NCBI GenBank assembly: GCA_021654395.1
Contig: AP024486.1
Span: 570,001-602,000, forward strand
Origin: Candidatus Saccharimonadota bacterium
Lineage (GTDB): Archaea > Micrarchaeota > Micrarchaeia > Micrarchaeales > Micrarchaeaceae
DNA: 32,000 nucleotides
Direction: 5' to 3'
Position numbers and translations under genes: made by a program. The notes beneath the pieces were generated by a model, which was not told the origin of the DNA, made no database searches, and saw only the letters and a list, made by a program, of their open reading frames with translations. Each line of letters opens with the position of its first letter. Position 1 is the first letter of the stretch. Shown piece by piece: positions 713-27,445 of this stretch.

Positions 713-2641
713 ATGAGTGATAGTAGCGATTCAAAGAAGGATAGCTATACAGGAAAGGATATAACGGTGCTATCCGGAACAGAAGGCATCAGAAAGAGGC
801 CTGCTATGTATATAGGCTCAACAGACTCTAGAGGTATGCTGCATCTGCTCTTTGAGATAATAGATAATAGCATAGATGAAGCATTAGCAGGCTACTGTAA
901 GAACATAACGATAAGGCTTGAGAGAGAGGACAACATGGATGTTGCAGAGGTAGAAGATGATGGTAGAGGCATACCTGTCGATATAGTTGAGAAGTATAAT
1001 AAGCCAGCATTAGAGGTAATACTAACGCATATACATGCTGGCGCTAAGTTCTCAAATAATGTATATAAGGTATCTGGAGGATTACATGGAGTAGGATTAA
1101 CAGTAGTTAATGCTCTCTCAGAGTACCTTATAGTAACTGTAATGAGAGATGGTAAGATATATAGGCAGCGCTATAGTAGAGGCGCTTCAGTATCTCAATT
1201 AGAGATTATAGGCAGTATCGATGGCAATAAGACTGGTACTATAATAAGATTTAAACCAGATAGGGAGATCTTCTCTTCTGATTCTTTTGACTCTATGCTT
1301 CTTGAGGAGAGAGTAAGATATCTTGCATTTCTAAACCCTGGTATAACAATAAGGCTTATAGATAGTAGATATGAGAGCAAGAGAGAGCTTATCTTTAGAT
1401 ATGAGAATGGGCTAAGAGACTTTTTAGATGATATAAATAGTAAGAAGCCCTTGATAACTGATCAGATAGTTATAGACAAGACAGAGCAGAATGTAAGGGT
1501 AAATATAGCATTCGATTATGTTGATGACTATTCAGAAAAAGTACTAGGATTTGCAAATAGTATAAGGACATATGATGGTGGAACTCATATAACAGGCTTC
1601 TACTCAGGCTTATCTAAAGCGATACAGAGCTATATAGACTCTAATGAGAAGATAAAGAAGAGCTTAAAGGTAAAGATAGAGGCAGAGGATATGCATGAGG
1701 GCTTAAGAGCAGTAGTTGCTGTATATCTTCCTAACCCGGAGTTTGAAGGTCAGACAAAGGAGAAGCTAGGCAATAGCATAGTAAAGAGCATAGTTGAGAA
1801 GATAGTATATGATGAGCTATACTCATATCTAGATAAGAATCCAGGAAAGGCCTCAGCGTTGATTAATAAGCTAGCTATAGCAGCTACTGCTAGAGAATCT
1901 GCTAGAAAAGCCAGAGAGATCGTTAGAAAGAGCAAAGAGATAGATAAGATCCTATTAGCAGGAAAGCTAGCAGACTGTAGTGAGGATGACAGCTCTATAA
2001 CAGAGCTCTTTATAGTAGAGGGAAGAAGTGCAGCTGGCTCTAGTAAGCAGGCAAGAGATAGAAGGATACAGGCGATACTGCCATTAAGAGGAAAGGTGCT
2101 AAATGTTGAGAAGGCTAATCTAGAGAAAGTATTCAATAATGAGGAGCTAAAGTCTATAGTGGCTGCATTAGGCACAAATATGAAAGAGAAGTTCGATTAT
2201 AGTAAGCTGAGATATAATAAGATAATAATACTTACAGATGCAGATGTAGATGGAAGCCATATAAGAACATTACTGCTAACATTCTTCTATAGATATATGC
2301 CTCAGCTTATAGAGAAGGGTCATCTATATGTTGCTCAACCCCCTCTATACAGAGTTCAGCATGGTACAGAGGTTATATACGCTTACTCAGATAGTGAGCT
2401 AGAGGAGCTTAAGAAGAGGTATGGAAAGGTTATAGTTCAGAGATTTAAGGGATTAGGAGAGATGAATCCAGAGCAGCTATGGGAGACTGCTATGAATCCT
2501 AAGACAAGAAGGCTAAAGCAGATAACAGTAAGGGATGCTGAAGAGGCAAATAGGATCTTTGATATTCTTATGGGAGCTGATGTTGAGAAGAGAAAGGAGT
2601 TTATAGAGCAGCACGCTACTGAGGCTGTTCTAGATATATAA
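713..2641 (+). CDS. gyrB: DNA gyrase subunit B
   Basis: 642 aa. GHKL ATPase motifs are present (EIIDNSIDEA, DDGRGIP, GGLHGVG), plus the Toprim motifs ELFIVEGRSAAGS and LTDADVDGSHI and the PLRGKVLNVEKA motif. It lies directly upstream of gyrA. Confidence 0.97.
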   Translation: MSDSSDSKKDSYTGKDITVLSGTEGIRKRPAMYIGSTDSRGMLHLLFEIIDNSIDEALAGYCKNITIRLEREDNMDVAEVEDDGRGIPVDIVEKYNKPALEVILTHIHAGAKFSNNVYKVSGGLHGVGLTVVNALSEYLIVTVMRDGKIYRQRYSRGASVSQLEIIGSIDGNKTGTIIRFKPDREIFSSDSFDSMLLEERVRYLAFLNPGITIRLIDSRYESKRELIFRYENGLRDFLDDINSKKPLITDQIVIDKTEQNVRVNIAFDYVDDYSEKVLGFANSIRTYDGGTHITGFYSGLSKAIQSYIDSNEKIKKSLKVKIEAEDMHEGLRAVVAVYLPNPEFEGQTKEKLGNSIVKSIVEKIVYDELYSYLDKNPGKASALINKLAIAATARESARKAREIVRKSKEIDKILLAGKLADCSEDDSSITELFIVEGRSAAGSSKQARDRRIQAILPLRGKVLNVEKANLEKVFNNEELKSIVAALGTNMKEKFDYSKLRYNKIIILTDADVDGSHIRTLLLTFFYRYMPQLIEKGHLYVAQPPLYRVQHGTEVIYAYSDSELEELKKRYGKVIVQRFKGLGEMNPEQLWETAMNPKTRRLKQITVRDAEEANRIFDILMGADVEKRKEFIEQHATEAVLDI

Positions 2642-5047
2642 ATGGTAGATATGGACCTTGCAGCTAATATAGAGGATGAAGTTAAGGACAGCTATCTACA
2701 GTATGCAATGAGCGTTATAGTAAGCAGAGCTCTACCAGATGCTAGAGATGGATTGAAGCCTGTCCAGAGAAGAATTCTATATGCAATGTACAAGCTTGGA
2801 ATAACTCATGATAAGCCATTTAAGAAGAGCGCAAGGATAGTCGGTGAGGTTATAGGAAAGTATCATCCACATGGAGACGAGGCTGTATATGAAACACTAG
2901 CTAGAATGGCTCAAGACTTCACAATGAACTATCCTTTAATAGAGGGTCAAGGAAATATGGGATCTATAGATGGAGATCCTCCAGCAGCTCAGAGATACAC
3001 AGAGGCAAGATTAAGCAAGATCTCTGAAGAGATGCTCGAGGATATAGATAAGAATGTAGTAGCGATGATGCCGAACTTCGATGCCACAGAGGAGGAGCCA
3101 GAGATACTTCCTGCAAAGGTTCCAAATCTATTTTTAAATGGAGCGAATGGTATAGCTGTAGCATTTACTACAAATATAATGCCACATAATCTAAATGAGC
3201 TAGCAGATGCGATAATAGCTTATATAGATAATAATAGTATAACAGATGATGATCTTCTTAACTATATAAAAGGGCCGGACTTTCCTACGGGAGGCATAGC
3301 CTTAAGAGATAAAGGTCTCATAGACTCTTATAAGACAGGGTATGGATATGTAATAGTTAGAGCTGTAACTGAGCTAGAAGAGAGCAAGGGTAGAAAGAGC
3401 ATAGTAATAAAAGAGATCCCATATACAGTAAATAAGTCTAGCTTAGTAAATAGAATAGCAGAGCTAGCAAAGAACATACTGACAGATATATATGATATAA
3501 GAGATGAGTCAGATAAGAAAGGCGTAAGAGTTGTTATAGAGCTAAGCAAGAATGCAGATCCAGACTATATACTTAATTATCTATATAAGCATACAGATCT
3601 GCAGCTTAAGATACAGATAACAAATGTTGCTGTAATAGGCAATAGGCTTGTCAGACTTTCATTAAAGGAGTATATAAAGACATATCTAGAGCACAGATTT
3701 AATGCTATAGTAAATAGAACTAGATACGATCTTAATGAGTCTCTAAAGAGATTAAAGATTACAGATGGTTTAATTCTGGCTATAAGAGATATAGATGATA
3801 CAGTAAAGATAATAAGATCGAGCAAAGACTATAAGGAAGCAGAGGAGCAGTTAATGAAGAGATTTAATATAGATAAGGAGCAAGCAGATGCGATACTAGA
3901 TCTGAGGCTTAGTAGGCTAACCTCCTTAGAGGAGTCTGTCTTAACAAAGAGCAAGGAGGAGCTAGAGAGGAAGATAGCTGAATGCAAGAATATACTAGAG
4001 AATAGCTCTGAAGTATACAGAATAATAAAGGATGAGCTGAATTATCTAAAGGAGCATTATGGAAGAGAGAGAAAGACTAAGATAGTTGATAGTATAGAGA
4101 TGAGAGAGCTAGATATAGAAGACACTATAAAAGACACATACTCTATTATTGCATTATCAGAGTCTGGCTTAATAAAAAGGATCAGCGCAGATATACTTAA
4201 GAGACAGGGGAGGGGCGGAAAGGGACTTAAGCTATCAGAGCTAAAGGACAATGACTCTCTAAGAGCCTTAGATATTCTAAAGAATAAAGATTATGCGATA
4301 TTTATAACAGAGGACGGCTTTGCATATGCTATAAAGGCATACTATATACAAGAGAGCTCTAAGGAGTCTATAGGCAGATCTATAGCAAACTATATAGAGA
4401 GTCTAAGAGATAAGAAGATAGTAAAGATACTGCATGCTAGAGAGTCAGATAAGTATCTAATACTGCTTACAGAGAAAGGCATTGTAAAGAAGATTGCCCT
4501 TAGTAAGATATTAGACTCAAGATATAAGCAGCAAGGTTTGTCTATAATACAGCTAAATAATGATAAGCTTATAGATGCGGTAATAGCAGATAAAGGATCA
4601 CATATAACTATAGCCACAGAGAGAGGCTATACATTAACATTTAGCGAGGAGCAGCTTAGAGCTATGGGAAGAAAGTCTTATGGAGTTATAGGTATAAGAC
4701 TAGATAATGACAAGCCAGTATCTATAACGAGTCTTTACAACGCTAACTATATCTTCTTTATCACATCTGAAGGCGTAGGCAAGATAGTTGATATAGGCAG
4801 ATTTAAACCTCAAAGAAGAGGAGGTAGGGGCATAATAGGAATAAAGATAAAGAATCAGAGCGATAGGCTTGTTAGAGCTATCTCTTTGCATAGGGATTCA
4901 ATGATAACAGCAGCCACTAAGAATGGAATATGCATAACTATAGATCAGGCTTCACTCAAGCCATTAAGTAGAGCAGCATACGGAGTCAGGATAATTAAGT
5001 TAGATAATGACTCTATAGTAGATGTTAAAGAGCTTCAGACAGGCTGA
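2642..5047 (+). CDS. gyrA: DNA gyrase subunit A
   Basis: 801 aa. The ATG abuts the gyrB TAA (TAAATG). It has the HPHGD motif, the catalytic-Tyr context [10 protein letters not shown], and a GyrA-box-like QGRGGKG at the start of the C-terminal repeat domain. It ends in TGA. Confidence 0.97.
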
Positions 5048-6634: not shown

Positions 6635-6704
6635 TATTAAATCTTCTAACTATTAACTTAAGTATATTAAATCTTAGTATATTAAATCTTATATATTAAT
6701 ATCT
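6635..6704. repeat. short direct repeats (TATTAAATCTT core) in a divergent intergenic region
   Basis: AGTATATTAAATCTT occurs twice in perfect tandem (6661-6675 and 6676-6690). A degenerate third unit follows (ATATATTAATATCT, 6691-6704), and a core copy TATTAAATCTT precedes at 6635-6645. Confidence 0.7.
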
Positions 6705-6745
6705 ACAAAAGCTTTAAATATCAGGTAATATTATACTTTATCTTT

Positions 6746-6940
6746 ATGATAAGCGAAGGGGTACTAAGATCAGATCTCATTAAAAAGATATTAGGCATCA
6801 GATATATAGAAGATAATCTGCTTAATCCGAATACAATAAAGTATAATCCACTAATGAGGTTATTATGCATTATGACTCCCTTTTATATAGAACAGTATCA
6901 TAATAAGGCTATTCTTACTATATCTGGTAGAGCAGTATGA
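6746..6940 (+). CDS. small hypothetical protein (64 aa), stop/start-overlapped with the 822-aa gene
   Basis: TTTAAATA (6713-6720) sits ~26 nt before the ATG, a spacing consistent with a leaderless transcript. The stop overlaps the next ATG as ATGA (6937-6940). No homology recognised, so coding status is uncertain. Confidence 0.35.
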   Translation: MISEGVLRSDLIKKILGIRYIEDNLLNPNTIKYNPLMRLLCIMTPFYIEQYHNKAILTISGRAV

Positions 6941-9405
6941 ATATAACTTCATGGCTAGATTCAAATTATAAGAGTCTATTAAATGAGTTAAAAGCATTGG
7001 AAGTAAGCGAAGATAGCGTATTAAAGTTTGATAAGGCAATTAGATCAATAAATGAAAGCATAGATCTAGTATATAAAAGTAAGTCGCGCTTAAGTTATGA
7101 GCTGCGAGATCTTCTATCAGATCTAAATTACTTCCTAGGCTTATTATACGATTATCCAGAATATAGCAAGGTAGAAAATCTAAGCCATATTATCAATCCT
7201 TTATCTAAGATAATAGATATTATAAGCATAGGTATTAATAGAGGCGATAAGAAGAGTATAAATATAGCTAAAGTCGCTTCAAAGTCTGCAGAGAAGCTAA
7301 TAAGGCTAAGCAGTGTAGCAGATGGACAAAGATTGGGCCTTATGGCTGAAAAGCTTTCAGATTATCTAGATAATCTAGATAAAGAAAGCTATAATATAAA
7401 ATACATAGAAAACTTATATTCAATTTTAGTGAGGCTACAAAAGATCTACCCTATATTTGGATTAAGCACTCTTGATCTTGTTAATAGAATACTATCAAGT
7501 AAGAATACTGATATAATAAGATTAGTAACATATCTAGACAGTTTAGATGCACAAGATGCTTCGTATGATAAATTACTTAACAAGATAGATGAAGATGTAG
7601 CAAAGACAGTAGATACTAAAGTAGCAGATCTCGTAGAATCTATTAAGAACAGAGATAGCATAGATGAAGAAGATCTATCTATCCTTATAGGATTAAGCAC
7701 TCTAATAAGAAAGGCAGTTAAAGGCTATAAGAATAATAAAGAGAGGCTGCAAAGGCAGCTTAGCTATATCTATGATATTAAAGGATCATTGAATTCAGAG
7801 AGTAAGAGCAATCTCAAGAATCTATGTAGAATAGCTATTGATTTAGATATAGAAGAGGATGACTTAATAGGGCTAGATGAAAAAGTCCGCTATCTATTAG
7901 GTATAGATTATAATGATCTTCATCTTATAATAAGCTCTATAAATAATATGGAAAAGAGATATAAAAGCTATAAGATATACGGATACAAGCCAGAGCTAGA
8001 GAAGCTGGGGCTTTTAATAAGTAGTACATTTAAAGGCATAGTAGAGGAGAGATATAACAAAGCAGATAGTCTAAAGGTTATTAATATAATTAATAACTTC
8101 GCTGAATTCTTAATAAAGTACTATAGATCAGATACAAAGTCCTTCGAAGCTATTATAGAAGCGTTAGCATTAAGCCTAGATTATAATAAGCTTATAGATA
8201 AAAAGGATATTATTAGATTAGAAGATATCTCTACTAATCTTAATAAATTGGATCTACTTGGTAGTAGGTCCTTAGATATTATCTTATATCTAATAAAGTA
8301 TAAAGACATGGATCTATTATACAAAATAAGATCGATTAGACTATCAGATAGCTTAATAAAAGATATTATTAAGAGATTTGATAGCTACTATGGCTCGGAG
8401 AGGCTTGGAAAGAGGCGTATAATAGAGCTTGTAGATGCATTACACTATGCTGAGCTCCTGCAAGCTCTTAGCGAAGATCCTAATAGCATCATAGGATCTA
8501 TAAGATCTCCTAAGGAGCTAATATACAAGGTTAACGAGCTGCTAAGAGAGTATGGAGTATCTTATGAATCTGTTGACAAGCTTCTTCCATTTATAAGGAG
8601 CTTAGATAAAGATAGCATAGGCAGATTTATGGAGAGGCTAAAGAATAGATATAGTAGCAGCATACCAAGAGAGGTATATACAGTAGATGCAGATCCAGAG
8701 ATCGTTAAGAGAGAGCTTTCTATAATAAATAAGGAGATAATCGATATAGCAGAAATTGTTGGATATCTAGATATAGATAAAGAGAAGCTTAATAGTCTAT
8801 CTTTTGATTATACAAAGAAGCTCTTAGATAGAATGATATTCTATGTTAAAAAGAATGATCTATATAATAAGATCGCATATAATAAGCTACAAAATATAAG
8901 CTCAAGGCTAGGTCAGCTGGAGAGGATATCAAGATTGACTATTACTATAAATGATGATATAGGAGAGCAGGTAGCCTCTTTAGTAAGTGTAAAGACATGC
9001 TTGTCACCAAATGGAGAGCTCTTTGATTATACTAAGACATATATAGATAATTTAGATTCTGTAGTATTTATTACTATAAAAGACAAGGAGAACAAGATAG
9101 TGGGAAGGACATTCATTCTAGTAGGAGAAGATCCTCTTACAGGAATCGAAAGACTTATAGCAAGGGCTAGTGGAATACATCCAACATATCTAGAGGATTA
9201 TATAGCGGATCAGCTTGATAAGATATTAGAGATATATGCAATTAAGAATGGTATGCGATTCATTAAAAAAGGATGGATATCAGTTAAAGGCTTAAGTATG
9301 CTGTATGGAGATCTTGTAAGGTTTAGTCATAATTATAATAAAGATTACTTAATGGTTTATATATCGAAGGATCTTAAAGGATTTGATATACGTGATAAGC
9401 AGTAA
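6937..9405 (+). CDS. large hypothetical protein (822 aa): ~650-aa helical region plus a C-terminal Cys/His domain; paralogue of 15604-17991
   Basis: Long ORF with no TM segment. The C-terminal ~150 aa align with the 795-aa ORF: LTITINDD..SVKTCLSPNGELF (Cys688, codon 8998-9000), FITIKDKENKIVGR, ILEIYAIKNG, LYGDLVRFSHNY (His798, codon 9328-9330). Confidence 0.8.
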   Translation: MNITSWLDSNYKSLLNELKALEVSEDSVLKFDKAIRSINESIDLVYKSKSRLSYELRDLLSDLNYFLGLLYDYPEYSKVENLSHIINPLSKIIDIISIGINRGDKKSINIAKVASKSAEKLIRLSSVADGQRLGLMAEKLSDYLDNLDKESYNIKYIENLYSILVRLQKIYPIFGLSTLDLVNRILSSKNTDIIRLVTYLDSLDAQDASYDKLLNKIDEDVAKTVDTKVADLVESIKNRDSIDEEDLSILIGLSTLIRKAVKGYKNNKERLQRQLSYIYDIKGSLNSESKSNLKNLCRIAIDLDIEEDDLIGLDEKVRYLLGIDYNDLHLIISSINNMEKRYKSYKIYGYKPELEKLGLLISSTFKGIVEERYNKADSLKVINIINNFAEFLIKYYRSDTKSFEAIIEALALSLDYNKLIDKKDIIRLEDISTNLNKLDLLGSRSLDIILYLIKYKDMDLLYKIRSIRLSDSLIKDIIKRFDSYYGSERLGKRRIIELVDALHYAELLQALSEDPNSIIGSIRSPKELIYKVNELLREYGVSYESVDKLLPFIRSLDKDSIGRFMERLKNRYSSSIPREVYTVDADPEIVKRELSIINKEIIDIAEIVGYLDIDKEKLNSLSFDYTKKLLDRMIFYVKKNDLYNKIAYNKLQNISSRLGQLERISRLTITINDDIGEQVASLVSVKTCLSPNGELFDYTKTYIDNLDSVVFITIKDKENKIVGRTFILVGEDPLTGIERLIARASGIHPTYLEDYIADQLDKILEIYAIKNGMRFIKKGWISVKGLSMLYGDLVRFSHNYNKDYLMVYISKDLKGFDIRDKQ

Positions 9406-15268: not shown

Positions 15269-15548
15269 ATTAATAATTAAGAATTTTTTAGACATCTCTA
15301 GAAAATTACTCTTATTTTTATTCTATATATTCTAATTAAAGATAATTATTATATAAATCTACAAGATTTCAGATCTAATAGGTAATGTAGTATATATCTA
15401 CTTAAAGGCTAATAAATAGCTTTAAATCAAATTTAATCTAGTATATTCTAAATTATTCTTAAGACTTTAAGCTAGAATGTAATTTCATAAAATAACTATT
15501 TAATAATTTATAGTATTTTTAAATCTTATGCTTTATTTAATAGAAAGA

Positions 15549-15599
15549 TTTAAATATCATTAATATGCCAATATATAGGATATCTAAAGTTTGAGGTGA
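15549..15599 (+). promoter_or_regulatory. TATA box plus strong Shine-Dalgarno for the 795-aa gene
   Basis: TTTAAATA at 15549-15556 and GAGGTGA at 15593-15599, 4 nt before the ATG at 15604. Confidence 0.5.
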
Positions 15600-15603
15600 T
15601 TAT

Positions 15604-17991
15604 ATGAGAGTATTAAAAGGCATAGATAATGGTTTTTCTGGTTTAGATGAATTAAATTTTATTATAGAAAATACAAAATCTGCTCTTAGATCTAAACATC
15701 CTGAATTTGATGAAGTCCAGAAGTTACTGAAAAAATTAGAAGAAACTTATAGAGATATGCCAGAAGCCTTAGAACTTTTACGTTATAGCTTAAAGAGTTT
15801 TATAGGGTATGAGTTTACTGATAAATTATATAAAACGGAATATAAAATTAGGGTAATTGATCTTCTAGCATCACAAGATACAAAAGAGCTTTTTAAAGAA
15901 GCTTTTAAGAGAATCGATTCTTTATTTGCAAATGGAAATGGTTCAGAAAAAATAAAGGCTCAATTTGTAAACGCTATTGAATCGATAGCCAAGGCCATTT
16001 CTAAAGCAGAATATAGTGGTAAATTAAGTCCTGATAGTACAGATATAAAAAATATCTATAAAAATTTTATAGAGGACACTAAAGAGTTATTAAGGTATAT
16101 AAATGAAGCTAATGTTAGTAATGATTTAAAAATAGAATTCCTTAAAGCTATTAATTTAACTATATATGAAACAAGCGATTACTATTATAAAGATATATAT
16201 AAAACAGATATATATAAAATATTTAAATTAGAGAAAGGGGGGTCAATTAGGAAAGATAAAGTAGAAGCCGAGTTAAACAAATATAAAAGTATATCAGAAA
16301 GGTTTGATCTAGAACTCGATGATTTTCTTGTAAAAGAGATATATAGTTATATATCTGCAATAAGAATTAAATCTGATGATCAGAGGTATGATAAATTAGC
16401 AGATGGTATACTAGATTGGTATTCTAAAGATTTAAGTTCTAAGTGGGAGGCAGCTCGCCTTACTAAATACGCATTGGAACTTTTCTATTTAACTATCAGA
16501 AATAGTAATTTTAAAGATTTAGAACCAATAGAGCGTATAATTGAACCACTTAAGAATAAAGATCTTGCTGAAGGATTAGCTTATAACAGAAATATTTCTG
16601 ATATTATAAATAATGTAGCAAAGATTTATAAGATATTTGGCGATCTTTATCCAGAAGTTATAAAGTATATGGTAAAGAAGGGTAATACTAAGGATCTAAT
16701 TACCATAGAAGCTATAAGTGATGAAAAGTATGCTTCTGAAGTAATAGAGAAGCTAGGTCTTGATAAAAATAATATAGGATATAGAGCAATAGGTAAATTA
16801 ATTGAAATCGCCTTCTATGCAGATTTATGTAAGTATTTAGGTATAGATATAGAGAAGGTAGATAACAAAGATCTAAATGGCTTTTTAGATAGTATTAAGA
16901 GGTTAGTAGCTGAAAAGTTAATAAAAGAAATAATAGAGGAAAGAAACAACAAAATTAGAAATGAAGCTAATCTAAAAGGTACAGAAAGCCCGCAGTATAA
17001 TGAATATATAGAAAGATACGCTGACAAAGTTATAAGATTATTAGATATTTTTGGGTCAACTATAAAATCTTATACAAAGCTAGTAAAAGAAGTAATAGCT
17101 AAAACCATATCTAATAATGAAACCTCTTATGAATCATTTACAGTTAAGGTTAAAGGATTATTTAGAATGAAAGATAGACATCAGTTTATTTATAATATTA
17201 TAAAGGAAGAGCTAAATGATTATGCATATAAGCTCGGAGTTAATACAGATATAGATAAATTGAACACTACAGAAGAGCTTAAGAAGCTTGCTCAGAGTCT
17301 AATAAGCCGTGTAAATAATATAATTAGGAAGAATAAACAGATAAATGATATAGAAAAAAAGAAGTATAAAGAGATTGAAGGTAAGCTAAATGAAATAATA
17401 AATAAGCTAAGTAATGGTGTTGATAGTAAAGAGCTAACAGTAGAGATAACTAGAGACCCTATTCGCATGTTTGAAGCAGTGAATTCCGTTAGCTCATGTA
17501 TATCTCCTGGTGGAGTTAACTTTTGGAGATCAAGTCGCGCATTTATTAAGGATGCTTTAAATTCCGAAGAGCCGAGCTTCCTTATGCTAGTAGTATCAGA
17601 TGGAAATAGAATCATAGCTAGAGCTCCATTAGCTATCGGATATGTGCTTGAGAAAGATGGGGATGGAAGATATTTATTAAAAAACAATAGAAAAGCAGTT
17701 GCTTTGATAAGTAACGTATACACCTCAATACCAGATACTGAAGTCGATGAAGAGGTCTTAAAGAAGATATTAGAAGAGTATGCACATAAGAATAATCTTG
17801 ATATTGTAATACCTAAAGAAGAGAGAATATTATTTGCAGTAACACACCGAGAACCAGATATATATGGAGATCATATTGTCGGCCATAATTGGTTCAATAT
17901 ATCATATATCAAAGGAATAGGAGGTATTAGGATATACGATAATGAATACTGGTCGGTAGTAGAATTAGAGAAAAAACCACCAATGCTTTAA
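15604..17991 (+). CDS. large hypothetical protein (795 aa): helical region plus a C-terminal Cys/His domain; paralogue of 6937-9405
   Basis: Long ORF with no TM segment. The C-terminus aligns with the 822-aa ORF: LTVEITRD..SVSSCISPGGVNF (Cys632, codon 17497-17499), FLMLVVSDGNRIIAR, ILEEYAHKNN, IYGDHIVGHNWF (His761, codon 17884-17886). Confidence 0.8.
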   Translation: MRVLKGIDNGFSGLDELNFIIENTKSALRSKHPEFDEVQKLLKKLEETYRDMPEALELLRYSLKSFIGYEFTDKLYKTEYKIRVIDLLASQDTKELFKEAFKRIDSLFANGNGSEKIKAQFVNAIESIAKAISKAEYSGKLSPDSTDIKNIYKNFIEDTKELLRYINEANVSNDLKIEFLKAINLTIYETSDYYYKDIYKTDIYKIFKLEKGGSIRKDKVEAELNKYKSISERFDLELDDFLVKEIYSYISAIRIKSDDQRYDKLADGILDWYSKDLSSKWEAARLTKYALELFYLTIRNSNFKDLEPIERIIEPLKNKDLAEGLAYNRNISDIINNVAKIYKIFGDLYPEVIKYMVKKGNTKDLITIEAISDEKYASEVIEKLGLDKNNIGYRAIGKLIEIAFYADLCKYLGIDIEKVDNKDLNGFLDSIKRLVAEKLIKEIIEERNNKIRNEANLKGTESPQYNEYIERYADKVIRLLDIFGSTIKSYTKLVKEVIAKTISNNETSYESFTVKVKGLFRMKDRHQFIYNIIKEELNDYAYKLGVNTDIDKLNTTEELKKLAQSLISRVNNIIRKNKQINDIEKKKYKEIEGKLNEIINKLSNGVDSKELTVEITRDPIRMFEAVNSVSSCISPGGVNFWRSSRAFIKDALNSEEPSFLMLVVSDGNRIIARAPLAIGYVLEKDGDGRYLLKNNRKAVALISNVYTSIPDTEVDEEVLKKILEEYAHKNNLDIVIPKEERILFAVTHREPDIYGDHIVGHNWFNISYIKGIGGIRIYDNEYWSVVELEKKPPML

Positions 17992-25631: not shown

Positions 25632-26055
25632 TGCTTCTATAGAGCTTTTCTCTATTGATACTTTATAAAGTAATTAATAGAAAACAATACTGCGCTTCTA
25701 TGCTAGCTTTATATCTTTATAATGTAGCTTGAATATCTCAAGGCTATGCATTAAGCAATTATACGCTTAACTAAATCTATCGCTATCTAAGAATTATTTT
25801 TATTAAACTTAAAGAATTATACTGCTAATCCGAAGTCACTGAATCTATAAGAGAGCATTATAGCATTAAGCAATAGTCAGTTACATATATGTGCTGTATG
25901 TTAAAGTTACATTAAAGCTATGCATATCTACTAATAAGCAGTATCCGGCACATTTTCGATTTACATCTCTATAATATCTTAGCTTAGAATGACATTAAAG
26001 AGAGATTCAAAATACAAATATAAAGTTTATCATTGTGTATTATTATTTCTTATCT

Positions 26056-26703
26056 TTATTTTGTTGTTTTTCCATCATCAATGGCTCCTCTAATCTGTTT
26101 CCATGTTTCTTTATCAATTTTATCATCAATGCTCTCATCTCTTATCTGATTAAAAACACTTTCCTTTTTCTTTTCGAATATAGTAACATTTGCACTTTTA
26201 TTATTTATACGCACTGAGCTTTTTCTAGATGTACTGATATATATCTCCTTTTTATCTTTATTTACCTCAAAAAGGCGAGCATTATATATAGTAAATTCGT
26301 CTCCGATATTTAAACCCTCTATCTTTTTATCAGAGCTTAAATATACATTATTACCATGTACATCTATTATTTTATATAAAATAATATTCTTTGCCTTTGA
26401 TAGAGATAGTTTTTATATCAGATACTTTTCCTTTAACATCAACTAAACCGTTTTCTGGCCTTCTAGATAATTGAGTTAGATCTTTGAATATAAGCTCATC
26501 TGGTACATTCGGATTCTTAAAGAGCTCTGCTACCTTACTACCTATCTCCTCATCCCTCTTTTCATTTCTTCTTTTTGTTAATGAATTAAGTAGAGCCTTA
26601 GGTAGATTATTTAATTTAGTCTTAACCTTCTCTTTAAGCTTGCTTATAATAGTCTTAGTTAAGGTGTAGATTCTGATATATAAAACTTACCTTTATGTTT
26701 GTA
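26056..26703 (-). pseudogene. OB-fold nucleic-acid-binding (RPA/SSB-like) gene remnant, frameshifted and lacking a start codon
   Basis: Not in the track because it has no ATG. Minus-strand frame A (26703 down to the stop at 26374-26372) reads ..LIFKDLTQLSRRPENGLVDVKGKVSDIKTISIKGKEYYFI*. A +1 frame continues YKIIDVHGNNVYLSSDKKIEGLNIGDEFTIYNARLFEVNKDKKEIYISTSRKSSVRI..GKTTK* with its stop at 26058-26056. The pattern (V.GKV..i, D.tG.i.l, GD...i.na.v.e, i.i...s.v) is that of single-OB-fold archaeal RPA-like proteins. Confidence 0.5.
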
Positions 26704-27145
26704 TTAATTATAAATTATAATATAAAATTCATTTAAACCTTTAGGCAAAAAAAGAAAGCTTTTAATATCTATCTAATAGAATTAGTTTTGCAGAATAATG
26801 TAATCATCTATACGGTATTTTTATTATATTTTTCATCTGATAGTGCGACTGGTCTGAAACGCTGAAGTACTAAAGTCGTATCTTCTAGTTATACTGCATA
26901 TAGCATCTTCTCTAATAACTTATGTACGAATTAAGTATCATAATTTATTATCTAACTTAGAGAGATCTATCTAAGAAGTAAATAGGATAAGTCATTAGAC
27001 AGTATGATCTTAGAGATCTGCTTTGGAAGATTATCTAATAAGGCACAGATACGTACTTTTACCTATCATCTAACATATCTATCAAAGTATTATTTATGGG
27101 GTTATATAATCAATACTTTGGCTCTTTTTAAACATGTCTCTTTAT

Positions 27146-27176
27146 AATTCTAAGCCTTAGAGGCTTTAGAATTTTT
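27146..27176 (+). terminator. orphan hairpin followed by a T-run
   Basis: AATTCTAAGCC (27146-27156) pairs with GGCTTTAGAATT (27162-27173) with one bulge and loop TTAGA. The 3' arm runs into a T-run (TTTTT, 27172-27176). There is no CDS upstream on this strand for ~450 nt. Confidence 0.3.
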
Positions 27177-27393
27177 ATTAGCTAGCTAAGAGTTAATTGT
27201 TAAAGTTTATTGCAAATAAAGTGCAAATTAGAAGAAAACATAGAAATCATTAAGTTTAATTGGAGTGTATATAATGTAGTTATGTTAGCATATCTTAATG
27301 TTTAAGACTTTTAATGAGAAGCCATGATGCAATAAAACAAACTTATGCGAGTTTGGCTAAACTATTTACCAGTTAAGCCTAGACAGCTTAAAG

Positions 27394-27413
27394 GTTAAGT
27401 ATAAATACTTAAC
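27394..27413. promoter_or_regulatory. perfect 8-bp inverted repeat overlapping the TATA box of the wHTH gene (candidate auto-operator)
   Basis: GTTAAGTA-TAAA-TACTTAAC. TATAAATA (27400-27407) lies within it. The SD GGTGAT (27435-27440) sits 5 nt before the ATG at 27446. Confidence 0.4.
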
Positions 27414-27445
27414 TATCCATAAAATAATTAATTTGGTGATGAAGT

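Follow-up and report, generated by a model that had tools for sequence, protein, structure and literature searches.

Genes A (ARM1_0604, BCS91147.1) and B (ARM1_0615, BCS91158.1) lie in a 32,000-nucleotide stretch (the window) from ARM-1, a cultivated Micrarchaeota symbiont with a genome of 814 kb. They encode members of an undescribed family of cytoplasmic proteins that has so far been found only in DPANN archaea, namely in Micrarchaeota ARM-1, Aenigmatarchaeota, Nanoarchaeota and unnamed archaeal metagenome-assembled genomes (MAGs). Each member consists of a variable N-terminal region of ~100–500 amino acids (aa), a conserved helical core of ~250 aa and a C-terminal alpha/beta domain of ~150 aa, whose predicted fold is nearest to that of the GNATs (GCN5-related N-acetyltransferases; acyl-CoA N-acyltransferase superfamily). 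Our tentative reading, which we hold at somewhat less than even confidence, is that these proteins combine a helical scaffold with an aberrant GNAT-like domain, in which one pocket would take an anionic donor for group transfer. The two genes and their parts are as follows.

6937–9405, plus strand: gene A, 822 aa, family member according to the list of open reading frames (ORFs), the translation and the family profile
6937–8199, plus strand: residues 1–421 of A, lineage-specific N-terminal region, unalignable to B or the family
8200–8931, plus strand: residues 422–665 of A, conserved helical core (alignments, AlphaFold2 core model)
8932–9402, plus strand: residues 666–822 of A, C-terminal alpha/beta domain, its predicted fold GNAT-like but divergent (AlphaFold2, Foldseek)
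8998–9000, plus strand: codon (TGC) of Cys688 of A, in S/T-C-x-S-P of the alpha1-alpha2 loop, invariant in 32/32 sequences
9310–9312, plus strand: codon (GAT) of Asp792 of A, closing the Y-[DG]-D motif of the post-beta5 loop, invariant in 32/32 sequences
15604–17991, plus strand: gene B, 795 aa, a more divergent family member
16594–17433, plus strand: residues 331–610 of B, conserved helical core (alignment, family profile)
17434–17988, plus strand: residues 611–795 of B, C-terminal GNAT-like domain that has additional insertions and an extended tail
17497–17499, plus strand: codon of Cys632 of B
17869–17871, plus strand: codon of Asp756 of B (Y-G-D)

Genes A and B and their relatives

Both ORFs are present on the plus strand with the positions and lengths given in the initial annotation, and the translation of A is 100% identical to ARM1_0604, which is annotated as a hypothetical protein. 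As it had also stated, neither protein contains a transmembrane segment (maximum Kyte–Doolittle mean over 19 residues: 1.32 for A, 1.15 for B). The C-terminal ~200 residues of the two proteins align (BLASTP, 27% identity, E = 2e-6), with a Smith–Waterman z of 8.6 and a score that was reached in 0 of 200 shuffles. All four shared motif blocks named in the initial annotation were found in A and B, and the cysteines are at the positions claimed, Cys688 in A and Cys632 in B. Cysteine is scarce in both proteins, with 2 residues in A and 3 in B. The proposal of paralogy over the whole gene stood in part: A 422–799 and B 331–734 are collinear in a profile made from the other members, but the first ~420 residues of A and ~330 of B showed no significant similarity, since the best Smith–Waterman blocks were off-diagonal and z was 2.3 over the N-terminal 600 residues. 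Identity in the domain was 23% between A and B, and it averaged 30% between A and the other members and 24% between B and the other members. The equivalents in B of the near-invariant Gly723 and Arg743 are substituted (IIARA, VALIS). A and B are anciently diverged paralogues that go back to an old duplication, and B is the copy that is more derived.

Relatives were sought with an exhaustive HMMER scan of a two-sequence domain profile against 1.84 billion cluster-representative proteins (E ≤ 1e-3). Of the 26 proteins recovered, 23 besides A and B were true relatives, and one (P0015, 1119 aa, with 10 weak repeated stretches) was dropped as a repeat-driven false positive. The domain was C-terminal in every full-length relative, in proteins of 445–855 aa, and the ~250 residues upstream of it were likewise conserved. 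Recurrent motifs of this core are LFG.KY..IL.YL.RR.DR, GNK...RLIKLA.YLD, FLPW.K..D..ALKVL.GE..EK.G..R.Y and E.KPNL.RI.N; ..LG..SLDIILYLIKYKD.. and GKRRIIELVDALHYAELL are the counterparts in A of the first two. A profile built without A and B matched A 422–799 (E = 3.8e-37) and B 331–734 (E = 1.1e-33), and both proteins retained the eight invariant residues described below. A and B are thus collinear family members over ~380 residues. In one metagenome protein from ENA (P0004), the usual helical N-terminus is replaced by bactofilin-like repeats (residues 33–96; PF04519, E = 2.8e-6, at gathering score), which shows the family to be modular at its N-terminus.

Word-indexed searches were nearly blind to the family. 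Full-length A retrieved only A, a 20-sequence core alignment retrieved only the relative P0019, and a two-sequence C-terminal alignment gave no matches and missed its own seeds, which local hmmsearch scored at 1e-85 and 1e-117. These negatives are therefore index artefacts, and an empty word-indexed search should not be taken as proof of orphan status for compositionally biased proteins such as A and B.

When 185,579 species-representative genomes were scanned with a degenerate DNA pattern for the cysteine motif (Q...L....SC[LIM]SP.G..F.[YF]...Y), four of them matched: a Nanoarchaeota MAG, an Aenigmatarchaeota MAG and two MAGs labelled ‘uncultured archaeon’. All four were verified with the family hidden Markov model (HMM; hmmsearch), with no false match. 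An earlier scan of genome contigs with back-translated peptides found no members. Further members were located on eight metagenome contigs and one on a 723-kb contig. Every member with a taxon name came from a DPANN archaeon (Aenigmatarchaeota, Nanoarchaeota), and the named sources in the protein scan were Aenigmarchaeota MAGs. No relatives were found in IMG/VR viral contigs or, with tblastn, in 50,697 phage genomes, and a mobile-element or viral origin was rejected on these grounds.

The initial annotation had described the shared domain as belonging to no family that could be named, and as a candidate for an undescribed module. Both statements stand, and the family is new as a family. Comparison of 20–25 members with Pfam, NCBIfam, PADLOC, PHROGs and the sequences of the PDB gave no match. 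When A, B and the complete set of 25 domain sequences were run through hmmscan on Pfam-A (E ≤ 1 to 10), no acetyltransferase family was matched, and NCBIfam gave the same result. We found no mention of ARM1_0604 or ARM1_0615 in the literature, and the accessions of A and B were absent from the supplementary data examined of the ARM-1 proteomics paper.

Predicted fold, conserved residues and a candidate pocket

An AlphaFold2 model of A 638–822, based on a 25-sequence alignment, reached a predicted local distance difference test score (pLDDT) of 86.7 and a predicted template modelling score (pTM) of 0.77. The predicted order of elements is a long linker helix, beta1, alpha1, the Cys loop, alpha2, a beta2-beta3 hairpin, beta4, a long alpha3, beta5, the Y[DG]D loop and beta6-beta7. 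Cys688 was modelled in the loop following alpha1, VGR on the beta2-beta3 hairpin (beta3), AR.S on beta4 and YA on alpha3. The model agreed with secondary structure that had been guessed from the letters, with F[IL]..D..N[KR]I[IV][GA]R forming a beta-hairpin and ILE.YA.KN a helix. A second model of the 419-residue core (pLDDT 84.6) reproduced the same domain and supported its proposed fusion to a large helical scaffold. The claim that this scaffold is all-helical was borne out for the one part checked, A 404–665, which was modelled as helices plus one strand.

In Foldseek searches against the PDB, the best 50 matches of the domain were all GNATs (E 5e-4 to 7e-3, TM score 0.34–0.49), including GNA1, SpeG, NatD, Naa10, AAC(6') and RimJ-like enzymes. 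With the core model, GNATs were the only matches with a probability above 0.15, and the helical part had no fold match in the PDB. Acyl-transfer folds had been among the alternatives put forward for this alpha/beta domain, and the GNAT fold is one of them. Against the GNAT core topology (PMC8556138, which also covers the role of motif A), every element was predicted except alpha4, in place of which the model has a loop that bears the invariant Asp of Y-[DG]-D, and the matches were weak (TM score 0.34–0.49).

A strand-plus-helix unit upstream of the domain (A ~510–571, 8464–8650; ‘G.AR.Y.L...I..E...YA...G..I’) resembles beta4-alpha3 within it (A ~738–775, 9148–9260; ‘IARVS.VY.....D.AL..YA.E.G..F’). 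The comparison of the two units (beta0-alphaA with beta4-alpha3) gave an hhalign P of 0.0015 and a probability of 16%, and the domain HMM had a sub-threshold second match at the equivalent upstream place in six homologues. The likeness may reflect an ancient duplication; it is not significant.

Foldseek against BFVD ranked uncharacterised phage proteins of 322–674 aa first (best E 2.9e-6) and annotated GNAT/NAT_SF proteins next. These phage matches would suit a distant relationship to the PcfJ-like domain (PF14284), which in plasmids and phages likewise forms the Cys-containing C-terminus of proteins 450–820 aa long. The two groups share the layout of a long N-terminus with a C-terminal Cys domain and, by eye, a similar order of motifs (helix, [SH]-C-[LV], Y, beta-hairpin, helix). 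We nevertheless consider the relationship very unlikely and rejected it: none of 25 members matched PF14284 even at E ≤ 1, and hhalign of the 25-sequence profile gave P = 0.19 against pCF10 PcfJ and P = 0.39–0.54 against a 10-sequence alignment of pCF10 PcfJ and nine phage PcfJ proteins. Moreover, the PcfJ domain is ~90 aa long and stops where beta5-beta7 of the A/B domain would start, and the tblastn search of the 50,697 phage genomes was empty.

Conservation was scored on a 32-sequence alignment with the numbering of A. Eight residues were invariant in 32/32 sequences: Cys688, Ser690, Pro691, Phe696, Gly730, Ser745, Ala768 and Asp792. Fourteen others were near-invariant: Gln678, Leu682, Ser687, Gly693, Tyr702, Val722, Gly723, Arg724, Thr726, Ala742, Arg743, Tyr767, Gly779 and Tyr790. 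Together these residues concentrate on the alpha1-alpha2 loop, beta3, beta4, alpha3 and the post-beta5 loop. The invariance that had been predicted for the cysteine from A and B thus extends to all 32 sequences, and so does that of the last Asp of Y[DG]D (the Asp of YGD in A and B).

The histidine fared differently. The initial annotation had paired the cysteine with an invariant His, as in papain, transglutaminase or NAT-like enzymes, and had regarded a lack of conservation of both residues as evidence against its own reading. His798 of A and His761 of B align with one gap allowed and are absent from all other members, and no His column is conserved in the domain, so that of the pair only the Cys is conserved. 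A thiol enzyme with a Cys...His(+Asp) set of the papain, transglutaminase or arylamine N-acetyltransferase type could still draw on the invariance of Cys688 and of the YGD Asp, and on HN[YW], which follows YGD by 6–7 residues in both A and B. The predicted beta-sheet is GNAT-like, however, and no papain-like or transglutaminase structure was among the best 50 PDB matches. With no other conserved His in the domain, this explanation is scarcely credible. A Cys-His-Asp/Asn triad was rejected, as Cys and Asp are invariant and the His occurs only in A and B, and so was a papain-like fold with the Cys at a helix N-terminus, as Cys688 lies in the loop after alpha1.

Three elements border the cleft for the donor and acceptor substrates of canonical GNATs, namely the alpha1-alpha2 loop, beta4 and the stretch that follows beta5. 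The conserved residues of the family are found on the same elements: the alpha1-alpha2 loop carries S-C-x-S-P, beta4 carries AR.S and the stretch behind beta5 carries Y-[DG]-D. Since all three cleft-lining elements carry conserved residues, this constellation most likely forms a single functional pocket in the modelled domain, to which the near-invariant VGR of beta3 may contribute. The pocket would bind a phosphate- or carboxylate-bearing donor through Arg724, Arg743, Ser745 and the tyrosines. Cys688 would serve as a nucleophile or key contact and Asp792 as a base, so that a group could be transferred or processed, and the helical scaffold would select the macromolecular partner or target. 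The group-transfer function itself is what we infer from this arrangement.

Several results weigh against this reading. The structural similarity to GNATs is weak, with TM scores of 0.34–0.49, root-mean-square deviations of 4.5–10 Å and E-values of 5e-4 at best. The motif A P-loop, Q/R-x-x-G-x-G/A, was absent by regular expression from the beta4-alpha3 loop in 25/25 sequences; stray matches (RIVGRA/RLAGRA, and RKRGEG in P0024) fell on or just before beta3. No GNAT HMM matched any member even at E ≤ 1. The beta4 Arg is lost in B and P0009, and no conserved neighbourhood, shared pathway or operon partner was seen across seven genomic contexts. The missing P-loop and the unpredicted alpha4 make the use of acyl-CoA doubtful, and donor binding in the canonical CoA mode is unlikely. 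Given these two absences and the lack of a GNAT HMM match, we call the domain GNAT-like in fold and do not file it as a member of the GNAT family.

The main rival to a group-transfer domain is a non-catalytic binding module, that is, a GNAT-like domain that lost acyl-CoA chemistry and acts as a ligand sensor or as a protein-protein surface of a structural or scaffolding protein; the Cys-Ser-Pro turn would then have a structural or ligand-contact role. It would account for the loss of motif A, the missing alpha4, the lack of a GNAT HMM match and the tolerated loss of the beta4 Arg in B and P0009, and it would suit proteins of which the helical scaffold is the bulk. Regulatory GNAT-like domains exist, and one of them, the acetyl-CoA-binding C-terminal domain of M. 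tuberculosis ICL2, was among the weak matches of the core model. However, the 8 invariant and ~14 near-invariant residues persist at an overall identity of ~25–40%, on elements that line the GNAT cleft. They include a rare Cys together with Arg, Ser, Tyr and Asp, and such a pattern is seen more typically at catalytic or ligand-binding sites than in domains whose role is purely structural. We consider the non-catalytic module possible, on the doubtful side.

A GNAT-like fold without motif A would also fit a transferase that draws on aminoacyl-tRNA, an acyl-carrier protein or some further donor in place of acyl-CoA. The Fem, L/F-transferase and toxin-activating acyltransferase branches of the GNAT fold are not known to have the CoA P-loop. 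An enzyme resembling the Fem, L,F- or toxin-activating acyltransferases could hold the tRNA or carrier with its basic core, in which the motifs RR.DR and GNK...RLIKLA are conserved, and several loci adjoin translation genes (LeuRS, ProRS/EF-2, rpS15). FemX was among the weak core-model matches, but at a probability of only 0.33–0.54 and a TM score of 0.13–0.16, the neighbourhood is not conserved, and no Pfam match of the Fem, L/F-transferase or HlyC type was obtained. Such a donor is distinctly improbable.

The role of Cys688 bears on a bolder form of the group-transfer proposal. Covalent catalysis with a Ser nucleophile has a precedent in a GNAT (PMC8072286). A catalytic Cys has as yet been demonstrated in no GNAT, and every GNAT active-site Cys tested so far was dispensable and non-catalytic (PMC8072286), which sets a low prior for a Cys nucleophile and adds to the points against the proposal. 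As a minority bet, the domain might represent a novel catalytic class of the GNAT fold in which a Cys nucleophile and Asp replace the CoA P-loop and the Tyr/Glu acid-base pair. It would form a covalent thioester and act on a macromolecule chosen by the scaffold, as a lineage-defining modification enzyme of DPANN archaea, given that several DPANN phyla have retained it in minimal genomes. We regard this as improbable.

Upstream regions, gene neighbourhoods and the remaining window

The elements upstream of the two genes are listed here.

6711–6720, plus strand: TATA-like element GCTTTAAATA, located 26 nt before the 64-aa ORF and 217 nt before A
6746–6940, plus strand: 64-aa ORF (MISEGVLRSDLIKK...), its stop overlapping the start codon of A as ATGA (four bases)
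15547–15556, plus strand: TATA-like element GATTTAAATA, 48 nt upstream of the ATG of B
15593–15599: GAGGTGA, a Shine–Dalgarno-like site between the TATA-like element and the ATG of B

The suggestion that each gene has its own TATA box is only partly right: B has such an element directly upstream, and the matching element of A precedes the 64-aa ORF. That element (6711–6720) is the best TATA-like one, and its 26-nt spacing to the 64-aa ORF is as expected for a leaderless archaeal transcript. The motif was not significantly enriched in the AT-rich window, with 10 occurrences against 4.9 expected. No ORF similar to the 64-aa ORF was found upstream of homologues (0/12); it may be a co-transcribed or co-translated partner of A, or spurious. 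A 15-bp tandem repeat (TATTAAATCTTAGTA, 4.7 copies, 78% matches) occupies 6635–6704, in the divergent intergenic region between a minus-strand 451-aa ORF and the promoter of gene A. The repeat could be an array of regulator binding sites.

The neighbours of the homologues vary and are mostly housekeeping genes: SMC, LeuRS, rpS15, EF-2/ProRS and, in this window, gyrase. On the 723-kb contig, the homologue P0013 is the 14th of 16 co-directional ORFs (third from last) that are tightly packed and often overlap (L001 3429–12988), between EF-2 and a class-II aminoacyl-tRNA synthetase. Apart from two weak matches (TPR_1, CxxCxxCC), the run has no Pfam match. The run may represent an integrated element or an operon specific to DPANN archaea.

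ARM-1, alias Microcaldus variisymbioticus, is a thermoacidophilic DPANN symbiont in cultivation (PMC8784108, PMC11329633). The window has a G+C content of ~30%. Besides A and B it contains gyrB and gyrA, genes for a UbiE-type methyltransferase, an AAA_14/DUF4143 ATPase, a DUF255 thioredoxin-domain protein and a PIN protein, and a partial CLC channel gene. No window ORF other than A and B carries the family domain or core. The neighbouring 451-aa and 293-aa ORFs, noted earlier as belonging to no family, indeed have no Pfam match, and they showed no relation to the family of A and B. The gyrB-gyrA pair (713–5047) has a G+C content of 0.36–0.39, compared with 0.27–0.32 in the remaining window, which would fit a horizontal acquisition of gyrase. 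The ~1.8-kb stretch 25632–27445 has no ORF of at least 100 aa on either strand, no tRNA and no Rfam match at the gathering threshold. Possible explanations are a decayed gene, an unannotated RNA and an intergenic stretch that is unusually long for an 814-kb genome.

Significance and comparison with known systems

DPANN genomes are smaller than 1 Mb, and most of their lineage-specific genes are unannotated. A protein of 500–850 residues is costly; its retention in Micrarchaeota, Aenigmatarchaeota and Nanoarchaeota, and its duplication in ARM-1, suggest that it is probably important for DPANN biology. The family appears unusual within its fold, and its rule-breaking GNAT-like domain offers a concrete handle on its presumed function, with Cys688, Asp792, Arg743 and Ser745 as the obvious mutants. 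As ARM-1 is among the few cultivated DPANN archaea (it can be grown with Metallosphaera) and a proteomics data set has been published for it, the hypothesis is testable. A catalytic Cys688 would widen the chemistry known from what is one of the largest superfamilies of enzymes.

Papain-like enzymes, transglutaminases and arylamine N-acetyltransferases share with the family an invariant Cys and Asp, and differ from it in that the family has no conserved His and another predicted fold. PcfJ-like proteins (PF14284) resemble the family in that they are long and otherwise unannotated and end in a domain where a helix, a conserved Cys and a beta-hairpin succeed one another. In contrast to the family, PcfJ belongs to bacteria and mobile elements (conjugative plasmids, Firmicute phages); its domain is the shorter one, and the two show no detectable profile-profile similarity.

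A large helical part combined with a GNAT-like domain is found in NatA-type Naa15/Naa10 complexes. The same combination occurs in malonyl-CoA decarboxylase (MCD) and in ICL2 with its C-terminal domain, which were both among the core-model matches; these matches were not significant (probability 0.06–0.15, TM score 0.07–0.21) and came with no sequence similarity. Whereas MCD uses Ser/His and CoA substrates, the conserved set of the family is Cys, Arg, Ser, Tyr and Asp, and it has no CoA motif.

The closest comparison is with the GNATs themselves, with which the AlphaFold2 model shares the order beta1-alpha1-alpha2-beta2-beta3-beta4-alpha3-beta5-...-beta6-beta7 (PMC8556138). Unlike GNATs, the A/B-family domain is without the P-loop, alpha4 and an HMM match. 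It also invariably comes joined to a ~250-aa helical core, for which no structural counterpart was found, and it is distinguished by an invariant S-C-x-S-P turn in the alpha1-alpha2 loop and an invariant Asp after beta5.

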